A stretch of DNA of 64,000 nt from the NCBI RefSeq assembly GCF_013122565.1, contig NZ_CP053258.1. The stretch is one strand, 5' to 3'. Shown piece by piece: positions 37,999 to 42,735 of this stretch. Below the pieces are notes generated by a model. It saw only the letters and a list, made by a program, of their open reading frames with translations, ran no database searches and had not been told where the DNA came from. This DNA comes from Escherichia coli. GTDB taxonomy: Bacteria > Pseudomonadota > Gammaproteobacteria > Enterobacterales > Enterobacteriaceae. Position 1 is the stretch's first letter, and each line of letters opens with the position of its first letter. The translations under genes were made by a program, and so were the position numbers.

Positions 37999-38220
37999 AA
38001 AGTGGCACAAAGTAGCATAAAGGCTATGCTTTAATTACAGGAGGTTCAGACATTTGAATGTATATCGTTTTATCTAAACAGAACTAAAACGAAGTGAATG
38101 ATTTCATTTTTTCACTAAATCTCATTTTGTTTAATCTCTGTTGAGATTCCTTGTTTTAAATTTTGCTTTATATAAACAATAGCTTTATTTTTTAAATTGA
38201 TTTTTAGGTAATATAGAAAA

Positions 38221-38475
38221 ATGCAAAATCAAGGAATGAATATCCAAAGCAAACTATACGCATATTTAAATAAATATGACACTCGTCTTACAGAAGAAAA
38301 AATTGCGATTGAGAAAGCCATTAGAGAGTTACATTTTAGCAGCGAGCATGTTGATAACAAGAAAATAATACTGAAGTTACTATCATTTTTATCATATACA
38401 GATGATGTTGTCGAAAAAGACATTATCAGAAATGCATTGGAAGTGGTTCTTCTTTTTACTTCCGATGATATTTAA
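38221..38475 (+). CDS. AriR/YmgB-family small protein (paralogue of ariR)
   Basis: 84-aa ORF; C-terminal NKKIILKLLSFLSYTDDVVEKDIIRNALEVVLLFTSDD aligns with Ari[39 protein letters not shown]; weak RBS. Confidence 0.65.
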   Translation: MQNQGMNIQSKLYAYLNKYDTRLTEEKIAIEKAIRELHFSSEHVDNKKIILKLLSFLSYTDDVVEKDIIRNALEVVLLFTSDDI

Positions 38476-38717
38476 TTGAATTCATTAATTTTATTATCAT
38501 AATTATTTTCCGGACACTACATTTTTTACTTATGTTTAATAATAACCACTGCGAATGAGGGACGCACAGGTATATTTTTCTCACACCTGTGATGTAAAAA
38601 CACGATAAAATCCAAATAAAGAATAAAATTTGCGACCCCACCAGATGGATTGCATCACACATTATTATTCAAAATATTTATCAACATCATTAATAGCCGA
38701 AGGATAAGACATAACAA

Positions 38718-39041
38718 ATGAAGTGGATAGTAATTGACACGGTAATTCAACCTACATGCGGTATATCTTTTTCAGCCATATGGGGTGATATGAAAATGAT
38801 CGTCTGGTATCAATCTACTATATTTCTCCCTCCTGGCAGTATATTTAAACCGGTTAAATCTGGTATTATCTTTAAGGATAAAGAATACCCTATTACTATT
38901 TATAACATCGCACCATTCAACAAGGATTTATGGAGTTTACTCAAAAGCAGTCAAGAGTGTCCTCCAGGAGAAAGCAAAATAACAAATAAATGTTTTCATA
39001 ATAGTTGCATTATAAAAATATGCCCATATGGGCTCAAGTAA
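38718..39041 (+). CDS. iraM: anti-adaptor protein IraM (RpoS stabiliser)
   Basis: 107-aa [15 protein letters not shown]...ICPYGLK; matches my recollection of K-12 IraM; position adjacent to icd 3' end. Confidence 0.8.
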
Positions 39042-39090
39042 AGGGTTTCATATAAATATGCTCGATATGCTATTAATAATACCTACATAA

Positions 39091-39119
39091 ATAAAAAAAC
39101 GGGCGTGTTATACGCCCGT
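39091..39119 (-). terminator. rho-independent terminator of icd
   Basis: ACGGGCG-TGTTATA-CGCCCGT hairpin followed on minus strand by TTTTTTTAT, 25 bp downstream of icd stop. Confidence 0.8.
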
Positions 39120-39143
39120 TTCAATATTTAAAACATGGAGAGA

Positions 39144-40394
39144 TTACATGTTTTCGATGATCGCGTCACCAAACTCTGAACATTTGAGCAGCTTAGCGCC
39201 TTCCATCAGACGTTCGAAGTCATAAGTTACGGTCTTCGCGTTGATTGCGCCTTCCATACCTTTAACAATCAGGTCTGCGGCTTCAGTCCAGCCCATATGG
39301 CGTAACATCATCTCTGCGGAGAGAATAATAGAGCCTGGGTTAACTTTGTCCTGACCGGCATATTTCGGCGCAGTACCGTGGGTGGCTTCAAACAGGGCGC
39401 ATTCGTCACCGATGTTTGCGCCAGGGGCGATACCAATACCACCAACCTGCGCTGCCAGGGCGTCAGAAATGTAGTCACCGTTCAGGTTCATACAGGCGAT
39501 AACGTCGTATTCAGCCGGACGTAGCAGGATCTGTTGCAGGAACGCATCAGCGATCACGTCTTTAATGACGATCTCTTTGCCGGTGTTCGGGTTTTTAACT
39601 TTCAGCCACGGGCCGCCGTCGATCAGTTCACCGCCAAACTCTTCACGCGCCAGCTGGTAGCCCCAGTCTTTAAACGCGCCTTCGGTGAACTTCATGATGT
39701 TACCTTTGTGCACCAGGGTCACAGAGTCACGATCGTTAGCAATTGCGTATTCGATCGCTGCACGAACCAGACGTTTGGTGCCTTCTTCCGAACACGGCTT
39801 AATACCGATACCGCAATGTTCCGGGAAACGAATTTTCTTCACGCCCATCTCTTCACGCAGGAATTTAATCACTTTCTCGGCGTCGGCAGAGTCAGCTTTC
39901 CATTCGATACCCGCATAAATGTCTTCCGAGTTTTCACGGAAGATAACCATATCGGTCAGTTCAGGGTGTTTAACCGGGCTTGGAGTGCCCTGATAGTAAC
40001 GTACCGGACGCAGGCAGATGTAGAGATCCAGTTCCTGACGCAGGGCAACGTTCAGAGAGCGAATACCGCCACCTACTGGAGTGGTCAGCGGGCCTTTAAT
40101 GGCAACGCGATATTCACGAATCAGATCAAGGGTTTCAGCAGGCAGCCAGACATCCTGACCATAAACCTGTGTGGATTTTTCACCGGTGTAAATTTCCATC
40201 CAGGAGATTTTACGCTCGCCTTTATAGGCTTTCTCGACTGCAGCGTCGACCACTTTCAGCATGGCTGGGGTTACATCTACACCGATTCCATCACCTTCAA
40301 TGTAAGGGATAATCGGATTTTCAGGAACGTTGAGTTTGCCGTTTTGCAGGGTGATCTTCTTGCCTTGTGCCGGAACAACTACTTTACTTTCCAT
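39144..40394 (-). CDS. icd: NADP-dependent isocitrate dehydrogenase
   Basis: 416-aa ORF matching K-12 Icd; intact 3' end with no prophage junction. Confidence 0.97.
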
Positions 40395-40854
40395 TCACCT
40401 CTCCTTCGAGCGCTACTGGTTTGCTCGTCTGCCACCACGTTGCATATGCGTTTGCGTCCTGCGATACGGATGCTTTAGAGCAATTTTTTGTTAATGATTT
40501 GTAATTGGCTTGTCAATACTACCCTATTGTTTGCCGTCATGAAAGATGCGCGTTATTAGGCTATAATGCGGCAATTCATAATCTCTGAAAATACCATGCA
40601 AAAAACTTCTTTTAGACCAAAGACAGTATTTTCCCGACCTTCAAATAAAGTATTAAATATCAATTATTTACACCAGACTTTAAGCAATAAAAAAACCACC
40701 AGAGATAACTAACAGGGTGCTATTTGGTCAAAATTTGACATTACTCGATTCAGCGACTAACTCACTTTGAGCACTATTGGGAAAATTATCAAAAGTCATG
40801 GTTGAAGCGACAAGCAACGAGTAAATTATGGCATCCACCCTTTTTGAGGTTCAC

Positions 40855-40947
40855 ATGAAACGCTTTGCACTGATAGCTGTGACACTCATTGCCTTTACTG
40901 GTTCTAGTTCTGCATCTGCTGCAACCGAAGAAATCAACTTCAAGTAA
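40855..40947 (+). CDS. 30-aa mini-ORF with signal-peptide-like sequence
   Basis: ATG 40855 with GAGG SD at 5-nt spacing; MKRFALIAVTLIAFTGSSSASA-ATEEINFK; same frame as downstream 149-aa ORF, separated by two stops. Confidence 0.35.
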   Translation: MKRFALIAVTLIAFTGSSSASAATEEINFK

Positions 40948-40980
40948 CAGAAACACTATATAACAATGGAGTGTTGAAAA

Positions 40981-41430
40981 ATGGATACTACCGAAGAACG
41001 CAATGGAACATATTTCTACAGAGGACACCCGAACCTGTCCAAAATAGAACTACTCAACGTCATATTCCTTGAAGAATTCTGTAAGGAATTGGGGATTGAT
41101 TCGGTATCAGGTGCAGCAATCTTATCTGGTCAACCTTGGCTGGGTACAAGAGCGAAGCCGGAAGGGGCAACCCTGGGAACAAGTGTTGTCTCAAAGTATG
41201 CGCGTATACTGATGAGAGATGCACGCATGCCTTTTGGTATTTCTGTTCATACAACAGTGGGTGTAAGGATGCAGAAATCTAATAAGCTTGCTGCAATTAT
41301 CGCTCGTTGGGTCCCGTGGATTGGTTGGGCTTCACTGTCGATGAGTCTTTACAGGATTTCGACTCGTACCCAGGAAAAATACAATCTGATTGCCAAACCT
41401 CAAGACCGTATTAAGTGGACTTCCTTCTAA
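40981..41430 (+). CDS. hypothetical basic protein (149 aa), first gene of an islet gene pair
   Basis: ORF from track; net positive charge; AGA/AGG codons rare in backbone; stop overlaps start of next ORF (TAATG). Confidence 0.6.
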   Translation: MDTTEERNGTYFYRGHPNLSKIELLNVIFLEEFCKELGIDSVSGAAILSGQPWLGTRAKPEGATLGTSVVSKYARILMRDARMPFGISVHTTVGVRMQKSNKLAAIIARWVPWIGWASLSMSLYRISTRTQEKYNLIAKPQDRIKWTSF

Positions 41431-41765
41431 TGGCGACAACAATCACAGACGAAGTTTTAGCACTGTTCCGTGATGAGATTCCAGGTTATCAGGATGATCA
41501 CGGGAAGGAAATTCCGTTAGAACTGGACTCTGATTTGTTCGACTATCCACGAGATGATTTAGAGGACGCTATACGGAAATACAAAGAGAGGTTTGGGATT
41601 AACCTGGATAATCTGGAATGGTCTTTGTACCTTCCGTGGGAGTCTGCACCATTGCTTCAACGATGGTTCAAGCTCAAGCGGGAAGAGGTAGAAACAACAC
41701 GTTTACCGTTAACTGTACGGATGTTTGCAGAATCAGCAGAAGCGGGAAAATGGCTGTATCAGTAG
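41430..41765 (+). CDS. hypothetical acidic protein (111 aa), second gene of an islet gene pair
   Basis: ATG 41430 overlaps upstream stop (TAATG coupling); strongly acidic (MATTITDEVLALFRDEIPGYQDDHGKEIPLELDSDLFDYPRDDLEDA); track ORF begins at in-frame ATG 41415. Confidence 0.6.
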   Translation: MATTITDEVLALFRDEIPGYQDDHGKEIPLELDSDLFDYPRDDLEDAIRKYKERFGINLDNLEWSLYLPWESAPLLQRWFKLKREEVETTRLPLTVRMFAESAEAGKWLYQ

Positions 41766-41773
41766 AATAAAAA

Positions 41774-41800
41774 AGAAGGCTGCGATGCCCTTCTTATTAC
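41774..41800 (+). terminator. weak terminator-like hairpin after the islet gene pair
   Basis: AGAAGG-CTGCGATGC-CCTTCT hairpin 9 bp after stop, followed by TATTACT (poor T-run). Confidence 0.35.
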
Positions 41801-42096
41801 TGCTGATGATGGTAGTGGTAAAGCATCATCCTGAACTTAAACAGTGAAGTGCTGTCACCCATCAGTAATACAGAAACACTATTTTCATACCAGTATTTAT
41901 TCAATTCATCAATGTAAAATGTGTTCATTGGGCCATATTTATCACCATGCAGCCACACAACCGCTGCTCACTAACCCAGGTATTGATGAAACCGCGCTGA
42001 AGAGCCTGAACCCTGAACCTCTAACGAGTACCTTCAAAGTCCAATGCAATCCGACACTGTGCTAACCTCTGCGTATAGCTCTATTTGGAATTTACC

Positions 42097-42735
42097 ATGA
42101 AATACTTTAGCGATTCTAAATCTTCTTTTAGAAAAAAACAGGTTAGTCGACTAAACTCGCAACACACCACTAAGCGTAAACCTGAAAACCAGCCCACGCG
42201 TGTGATCCTGTTCAATAAACCCTACGATGTTCTTCCGCAGTTTACCGATGAAGCCGGGCGCAAAACATTAAAAGAATTCATCCCGGTTCAGGGCGTTTAT
42301 GCAGCAGGTCGTCTTGACCGCGATAGCGAAGGGTTACTGGTGCTGACCAATAACGGCGCGTTGCAGGCGCGTTTAACCCAGCCGGGCAAACGCACCGGAA
42401 AAATCTATTATGTGCAGGTGGAAGGTATTCCCACACAAGACGCACTTGAAGCCTTGCGCAATGGCGTAACCTTAAATGATGGCCCTACCCTGCCCGCAGG
42501 CGCGGAGCTGGTTGAAGAACCCGCGTGGTTATGGCCGCGGAATCCACCAATTCGTGAACGCAAAAGTATTCCCACCAGCTGGCTGAAGATCACCTTATAT
42601 GAAGGACGTAATCGCCAGGTGCGCCGCATGACCGCCCATGTTGGTTTCCCCACGCTGCGACTAATTCGCTATGCGATGGGTGATTACTCTTTGGATAATC
42701 TTGCCAATGGCGAATGGCGAGAAGTGACAGATTAA
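42097..42735 (+). CDS. rluE: 23S rRNA pseudouridine synthase RluE
   Basis: Body matches K-12 RluE ([22 protein letters not shown]...GEWREVTD); start uncertain (ATG 42097 or TTG 42085) and N-terminus may differ from K-12. Confidence 0.85.

Follow-up and report, generated by a model that had tools for sequence, protein, structure and literature searches.

Tse2 and Tsi2 of Pseudomonas aeruginosa are a small single-domain toxin and its small, acidic, helical immunity protein, which resides in the cytoplasm and carries no signal peptide. Tse2 is loaded in the lumen of Hcp1 (PMC8262886). In Salmonella and Enterobacter, the pairs Tlde1/Tae5-Tldi1 and Tae4-Tai4 are encoded with an hcp gene in compact, mobile and often orphan units; these toxins are peptidoglycan enzymes that act in the periplasm and are countered by periplasmic immunity proteins. 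A third relevant group is the Rhs/YD-repeat polymorphic toxins. Here we examine two overlapping open reading frames (ORFs), ORF149 and ORF111, that lie in an AT-rich islet between icd and rluE on an ordinary Escherichia coli chromosome. The 64,000-nt stretch of NZ_CP053258.1 that was analyzed is called the window below. The gene pair is quite probably an orphan polymorphic toxin-immunity module whose toxin, in its stand-alone form, is most likely carried by Hcp, the tube protein of type VI secretion systems (T6SS). Systems of this kind, T6SS or Rhs polymorphic toxins with their immunity proteins, are well known. The two protein families are named but uncharacterized, and the carrier-like fold of the immunity protein is unusual. 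The genes and the hairpin that follows them are as follows.

40981-41430, plus strand: ORF149, predicted toxin (effector) gene, 149 amino acids (aa), STM2901 family (NF045926; DUF8209/PF26636)
41430-41765, plus strand: ORF111, predicted immunity gene, 111 aa, DUF1493 (PF07377)
41760-41805, plus strand: stable, terminator-like hairpin just 3' of the immunity gene (-15.3 kcal/mol, z -3.0)

An earlier note on this DNA, made from the sequence alone, had located both ORFs correctly, together with the one-base overlap in TAATG (ORF149 stop at 41428-41430, ORF111 ATG at 41430-41432). Its proposal that the two are co-translated agrees with the stop/start coupling, which is conserved across the family. 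The note had also described a basic protein followed by an acidic one. ORF149 is a protein of 16.8 kDa with an isoelectric point (pI) of 9.88, containing 20 Lys and Arg residues and 12 Asp and Glu residues, and ORF111 has a pI of 4.51 with 14 and 24 such residues, respectively. This charge split holds family-wide, the pI of the toxin being 9.1-10.5 in 45 of 45 members and the median pI of the immunity protein 4.5-4.65. The note could assign neither protein to a family. Assignment is possible for both, to families that are uncharacterized.

ORF149 matches NF045926 with 156.8 bits against a cutoff of 110, its residues 8-142 covering profile positions 1-140 of 140, and PF26636 is present in the precomputed Pfam hits of all its homologs; a Pfam profile set that lacks DUF8209 gave only a weak KELAA match. 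ORF111 matches DUF1493 with an E value of 1.8e-29 (residues 4-110 on model positions 3-107 of 108). The ratio of nonsynonymous to synonymous substitution rates (dN/dS) against other genera is 0.03-0.13 for both genes wherever dS is estimable, which indicates purifying selection. Given the strong family matches and these ratios, both large ORFs are judged to be real genes.

The pair recurs as a unit. In a comparative scan with one genome per species (80 loci from 80 contigs, all Enterobacterales), 74 loci have a DUF1493 ORF that adjoins the STM2901-family gene at its 3' end or overlaps this end. The family is spread over E. coli, Salmonella (beside SPI-1, its pathogenicity island 1), Klebsiella, Enterobacter, Citrobacter, Cronobacter, Yersinia, Pantoea and Erwinia. 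When neighboring ORFs were clustered, the sole recurrent neighbor was a 160-aa Hcp (PF05638), and a full-length hcp touches the pair in 51 of the 80 loci (27 upstream on the same strand, 20 downstream on the same strand and 4 convergent). The remaining neighbors are unrelated housekeeping genes, and there are no defense islands. In Enterobacterales, hcp, the toxin gene and the immunity gene together are small mobile modules. Between 43% and 77% of Tae5-7 (Tlde1 family) effectors are near T6SS structural genes, and their linkage to orphan hcp genes has been interpreted as a sign of Hcp cargo (bioRxiv 10.1101/2020.02.18.954545). The hcp linkage of the STM2901-DUF1493 pair matches that reported for Tlde1/Tae5 effectors in being of comparable extent. 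The Hcp lumen suits cargo of 10-30 kDa (PMC8262886), a range that includes ORF149.

The predicted toxin domain also occurs in larger proteins. A profile built from 45 diverse members and searched against 1.84 billion representative proteins gave 646 matches, and many of those listed measure 200-612 aa and bear the domain at their very C-terminal end. Five of 10 such proteins scanned with NCBIfam have, upstream of the toxin domain, the RHS repeat-associated core TIGR03696 with a score above its cutoff; one of the five, P0286, has YD repeats besides this core. Pfam marks an RHS_repeat or YD-shell in some domain-bearing proteins, and the AFDB matches include Rhs proteins, for example a 1128-aa Rhs of Flavobacterium. 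DUF1493 lies directly downstream of Rhs-type or extended toxins in Bacteroidota-like contigs (L095-L098) and is found downstream in two of the three non-Enterobacterales contexts examined; no recognizable DUF1493 follows the toxin domain in a Myxococcota-like locus (L094). Two of the Rhs-type proteins, P0198 and P0246, have, between the Rhs core and the toxin domain, long hydrophobic stretches that are rich in glycine and contain GxxxG-like repeats. These stretches might serve membrane translocation.

The putative immunity gene, in turn, can stand by itself. Look-ups that started from DUF1493 proteins revealed an integrase-bounded island in Klebsiella and Yersinia contigs (L101-L103) that holds a Tlde1-domain effector gene, hcp, an orphan DUF1493 gene directly after hcp with no toxin gene, and a Prok-E2_B/ThiF gene. 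A Tlde1-domain gene and a DUF1493 gene therefore share one hcp island in these genera. In E. coli E14 (L092, locus 11789-12111), a fused hcp'-'DUF1493 deletion remnant is located beside hxsABCD in a mobile element. Extra DUF1493 copies are present in four further loci (L023, L043, L084 and L090), and a Rahnella locus has a toxin gene, a DUF1493 gene and a convergent hcp. A domain shared by stand-alone and Rhs-tip forms, a constant downstream partner and the existence of orphan partners are the hallmarks of a polymorphic toxin-immunity system, and the pair is best viewed as one. A toxin-immunity function was among the readings of the earlier note, and comparative genomics supports it well, through the hcp linkage, the Rhs fusions, the presence of DUF1493 after both architectures and the orphan immunity genes. 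The survey of homologs and neighborhoods suggested there has led to both Rhs C termini and T6SS hcp contexts.

Similarities and differences to the described systems can now be specified. STM2901-STM2902 of Salmonella enterica, beside SPI-1, belong to the same families and have the same order and overlap (invH is followed by the STM2901-family gene and then by DUF1493), and STM2901 is ~65% identical to ORF149. That pair likewise has no adjacent hcp, but it occupies a different chromosomal site. As in Tse2-Tsi2, a small single-domain toxin would be combined with a small acidic helical cytoplasmic immunity protein that lacks a signal peptide, and the toxin would be delivered inside the Hcp ring. 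Unlike Tse2-Tsi2, ORF149 and ORF111 have no PDB match by sequence, ORF149 has no fold match, and the immunity fold resembles that of an acyl carrier protein (ACP). The compact, mobile and often orphan grouping of hcp, small effector gene and immunity gene is shared with Tlde1/Tae5 and Tae4, whereas the immunity protein here is cytoplasmic and the toxin has no recognizable enzyme fold. STM2901/DUF8209 follows an RHS core domain in other phyla, as in Rhs/YD-repeat toxins. In contrast, ORF149 stands alone, without an Rhs shell or a PAAR or VgrG part, and has its own conserved N terminus.

From these comparisons we infer toxicity, neutralization by binding, T6SS/Hcp delivery and a site of action. 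ORF149 would be a small basic exported antibacterial toxin that, in the stand-alone form, is carried inside the T6SS Hcp tube into neighboring cells, and Rhs/YD-repeat proteins of other phyla would deliver the same domain at their C-terminal tip. ORF111 would be the cognate immunity protein, binding and neutralizing the toxin both in the producing cell and in sister cells that are immune. Translation of ORF111 would be coupled by the TAATG overlap to that of the toxin, such that toxin synthesis is always accompanied by synthesis of the antidote. ORF111 has neither a signal peptide nor a hydrophobic segment (grand average of hydropathy -0.60) and is therefore predicted to be cytoplasmic. Given this location of the antidote, the probable site of toxin action is the recipient cytoplasm or the inner face of the membrane. 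In the islet, the pair is probably transcribed from the old rluE promoter, and the hairpin follows the immunity gene. The better T-run of this hairpin is on the minus strand, where a terminator-like site spans 41791-41776. Lacking its own hcp, the toxin would need an Hcp encoded elsewhere. Otherwise, the pair may be retained chiefly because it guards against related attackers, or through addiction.

Searches of the PDB with the sequences of ORF149 and ORF111 returned nothing below an E value of 0.1. The structure model of ORF149 is weak, with a predicted local distance difference test score of 67, and gave no significant match to PDB structures; the matches in AFDB50 were all family members or Rhs proteins, without any of known function. 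The residues conserved in stand-alone and fused forms are in a GTSxxS(K) loop (T67, S68 and S71) and a GRxxPxxG motif (R109, P112 and G115), and R75 is invariant as well. Stand-alone forms have a highly conserved N terminus, MDTxEELNGTYFY, and their first ~8 residues are outside the region matched in fused forms. The N terminus may serve Hcp loading. An ADP-ribosyltransferase, for which the YFYRG and GTS motifs were considered, was rejected since the Arg is not conserved, being A, H or N in many members. A pore-forming activity through the C-terminal helix ranks low because the partner is soluble and cytoplasmic and the helix is only moderately hydrophobic. Its maximum on the Kyte-Doolittle scale is 1.24 over 19 residues, and the usual threshold for a transmembrane segment is ~1.6.

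The predicted structure of ORF111 has the four-helix carrier fold of ACPs, but ORF111 is longer by ~30 residues and differs from them at the start of helix II. Helix II of the model starts at residue 41, and D42-D43-L44 at this start are nearly invariant in close relatives, the column being E or D in distant ones. The serine conserved there in ACPs (DSL motif, phosphopantetheine site) is absent from DUF1493 alignments, where the equivalence of residues is based on secondary structure, not superposition. The nearest Ser or Thr is that of position 34, where 11 of 63 sequences have W, and hhalign detected no profile similarity between DUF1493 and E. coli AcpP. A rather unlikely explanation is that the immunity protein is a decoy ACP, in which the fold and the acidic recognition helix are kept and Asp replaces the phosphopantetheinyl-serine, and that the toxin targets the ACP system. 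Immunity by substrate mimicry is known for some nuclease immunity proteins. If this explanation is true, then the toxin would attack ACP or dock like an ACP-dependent enzyme, fatty-acid, phospholipid and lipid A synthesis of the victim would be shut down, and STM2901-family toxins would represent a new interbacterial toxin class.

Independent of the decoy proposal, if the pair is a toxin-immunity module, then STM2901/DUF8209 and DUF1493 constitute an uncharacterized antibacterial effector-immunity family that extends across Enterobacterales and recurs in other phyla as the toxin tip of Rhs proteins. Such a family would combine a toxin that has no recognizable fold or activity with an immunity protein that has a carrier-protein fold. 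Confirmation of this role would explain a conserved "hypothetical" gene pair in major pathogens and name a new toxin activity. Our literature search found no paper that assigns a toxin-immunity role to STM2901/DUF8209 and DUF1493.

Several observations weigh against the toxin-immunity reading or against Hcp delivery of the copy in the window. Adjacent hcp is missing in 29 of the 80 loci. In the window, the islet has neither hcp nor an hcp remnant: a tblastn search with all ORFs of 83 related loci found no remnants of hcp or of other genes in the islet flanks, and T6SS genes are absent from the 64 kb. In the literature retrieved, neither family is treated functionally, STM2901/STM2902 being mentioned only as genes that flank SPI-1 and DUF1493 only in lists. 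Within the toxin family, an Asp (D122 column) is present in 43 of 46 sequences and is missing from the subfamily of the E. coli protein. Moreover, ORF149 of the window has T92 where the other Escherichia copies and most close relatives have P, and dN/dS for the toxin gene within Escherichia is ~0.8, which is near neutral (11 changes only). Some decay of the orphan toxin copy is therefore conceivable. Finally, in the P2-like temperate Erwinia phage EtG (L099, NC_047833.1, locus 4001-4761), an STM2901-like gene and a DUF1493 gene form a moron of opposite orientation. It is inserted between the tail sheath gene and the gene for tail-fibre assembly, where P2-like phages often have anti-phage or defense cargo.

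Since the islet lacks hcp, the copy in the window either depends on an Hcp encoded elsewhere or has become a relic, retained for immunity or through addiction. The latter possibility, a disarmed descendant of a T6SS effector-immunity pair that is no longer delivered in this lineage, survives best among the alternatives, and we regard it as improbable but worth considering. In its addiction variant, loss of the immunity gene would be lethal as long as the toxin gene is intact. The missing hcp and the T92 replacement are what such a relic might show, as are the orphan immunity genes found elsewhere without a toxin gene. A further point in its favor is that dN/dS within Escherichia is higher for the toxin gene than for the immunity gene (~0.4), but both values derive from very few changes, too few to demonstrate relaxed selection. 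Moreover, 371 of ~374 carriers have an intact toxin ORF, at ~99% identity, and cargo effectors can be encoded away from their Hcp.

It is very unlikely that the pair is an intracellular toxin-antitoxin or abortive-infection module whose toxin is released on phage infection or stress. The coupled layout of a small basic and a small acidic protein, the moron of phage EtG and the placement of both proteins in PHROG families (of unknown function) would be consistent with this idea, and the earlier note had named toxin-antitoxin and phage-defense functions as options. These have found no family support: PADLOC-DB 2.0.0 contains no family that matches either protein at E ≤ 1, and neither Pfam nor NCBIfam gave a toxin-antitoxin family. 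In addition, the fold of ORF111 is carrier-protein-like and not that of a DNA-binding antitoxin, the neighbors are housekeeping genes instead of defense islands, and the hcp linkage and the C-terminal Rhs fusions indicate an exported toxin. The only E. coli "phage" with the pair (L091, ON470584.1, vB_EcoM-689R6, partial) is a prophage prediction that overruns into host DNA, and a phage origin in E. coli was therefore rejected. Beyond an e14-like integrase and excisionase, this record holds host icd, the islet, rluE, nudJ, mnmA and hflD. Through overshooting prophage records of this kind, host genes can enter families of phage proteins.

A non-toxin role, in which a small membrane-associated protein and an acyl-carrier-like partner serve metabolism or structure, is suggested by database labels of some homologs ("membrane protein" or "phage membrane protein"), the moderately hydrophobic C-terminal helix of ORF149 and the ACP-like fold of ORF111, but it is extremely improbable, since the helix is below the transmembrane threshold, the phosphopantetheine serine and AcpP profile similarity are lacking, no biosynthetic genes are linked to the pair, and the hcp and Rhs associations would be left unexplained.

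The islet that carries the predicted toxin-immunity pair was compared with islet-free genomes, and the features of the locus are as follows.

39144-40394, minus strand: icd (ORF list/annotation)
40395-40565, plus strand: native icd-rluE intergenic region, 100% identical to the K-12-type locus L002
40566-40712, plus strand: 48-aa ORF, remnant of the old rluE 5' end; codons 1-17 (MRQFIISENTMQKTSFR, to 40616) continuing into islet DNA
40602-40621, plus strand: imperfect direct repeat, left copy, at the end of the old rluE fragment; identical core CTTCTTTTAGA at 40606-40616
40617-42117, plus strand: imported AT-rich block, ~1.5 kb (from the comparison with islet-free genomes)
40855-40947, plus strand: 30-aa signal-peptide-like mini-ORF (ORF list), MKRFALIAVTLIAFTGSSSASA-ATEEINFK
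40947-40959, plus strand: exact 13-nt repeat ACAGAAACACTAT, left copy (repeat search)
41870-41882, plus strand: exact 13-nt repeat ACAGAAACACTAT, right copy (repeat search)
42097-42735, plus strand: rluE with replacement 5' end (Prokaryotic Genome Annotation Pipeline annotation in PT62, ATG at 42097; alignment)
42118-42137, plus strand: imperfect direct repeat, right copy, within the replacement rluE 5' end
from ~42.1 kb, plus strand: rluE, nudJ, mnmA, hflD and purB, in that order (ORF list/annotation)

Relative to K-12, extra DNA between icd and rluE had been noticed before, as had its AT-richness, and both observations hold. The two genes are ~1.7 kb apart in the window versus 171 bp in the K-12-type locus. 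GC content is 0.34-0.47 in the islet versus 0.49-0.56 in the flanks, and GC content at third codon positions is 0.41-0.44 in the islet genes versus 0.53 in icd. The additional claim of the earlier note, that the islet lies between icd and rluE at an integration hotspot, requires correction: the block interrupts rluE and re-supplies its 5' end. The known integration site of this locus, which we take to be the e14 site, is at the other (3') end of icd, and mobility genes, integrases included, are absent from the islet. On the icd 3' side, one GenBank record, the overrunning prophage prediction described above, has an e14-like prophage that includes an integrase and an excisionase.

By alignment, identity to K-12-type genomes stops 17 codons inside the rluE frame of K-12, at 40616; islet-free genomes have rluE annotated under the matching 5' sequence. 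The window retains the promoter-like site (ATGAAA-17-TATAAT, 40539-40567) that K-12-type genomes have in front of rluE, and we infer that the islet genes are now driven by this old rluE promoter. The 48-aa remnant ORF keeps the native start codon together with the promoter-like site and may be translated as a by-product. Homology to K-12-type sequence resumes at 42118, where the next ~60 bases are ~70% identical and are followed by near-identity. In carriers, rluE has a new N terminus, bases 42097-42175 being diverged from K-12-type rluE. This diverged 5' allele accompanies the islet exclusively: it is matched over its full length at 95% or more by 376 genomes, and in all 5051 others the match begins only at 42118 and is 90-95%. 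A protein search for the donor of the diverged 5' end returned fragments only.

The block is present in ~374 of 5426 complete E. coli genomes (~7%) at ~98-100% identity, and the complete gene pair is held by 371 of these carriers. In Escherichia sp. E1V33 the same site is occupied by the islet in a 97% identical form. DNA similarity to other genera is confined to 40981-41759, and an Rfam search of the islet gave no match. The islet is a clean lineage marker for E. coli, and it shows that a 1.5-kb cargo block can occupy a housekeeping gene by supplying a substitute 5' end.

The imperfect direct repeat at the two ends of the block is 85% identical over 20 nt with a spacing of 1516, and AAA(A/T)CTTCTTTTAGA is found at 40602-40616 and 42118-42132. 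It is best read as the overlap of the truncated old rluE 5' end with the imported homologous one. A simple attL/attR model does not fit because the bases after the right copy are not of the recipient type; the repeat is not proven to be a site-specific att core or a target duplication. It is possible that the block arrived by homology-facilitated illegitimate recombination or as a decayed integrative element.

Two smaller features are located within the block. The signal-peptide-like mini-ORF, which the earlier note had placed in front of the gene pair, is indeed present, but as it is not conserved it does not belong to the module: there is an indel in L093, a frameshift in L011, and 8 of 93 positions are variable. 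Scans of NCBIfam, PADLOC and PHROG gave no family match, and the mini-ORF is probably a decaying remnant or a chance ORF outside the module. The 13-nt repeat ACAGAAACACTAT has only two copies in the 64 kb, where none are expected by chance, and these bracket the gene pair. Other E. coli islets retain the repeat; in other genera the surroundings of the pair lack it. The repeat may mark a cassette boundary.

On the other side of icd, positions 38000-39143 of the window contain no e14 prophage, and iraM (38718-39041) adjoins icd directly. Together with a YmgB/AriR-family gene (38221-38475), iraM is located in a very AT-rich stretch (GC 0.26-0.33). Lastly, a 727,905-bp record of Salmonella Senftenberg NCTC10384 named "plasmid 2" (L100) carries SPI-1 from invA to invH together with the STM2901/DUF1493 pair. 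This 728-kb "plasmid" is probably a mislabeled chromosome fragment in the plasmid database.

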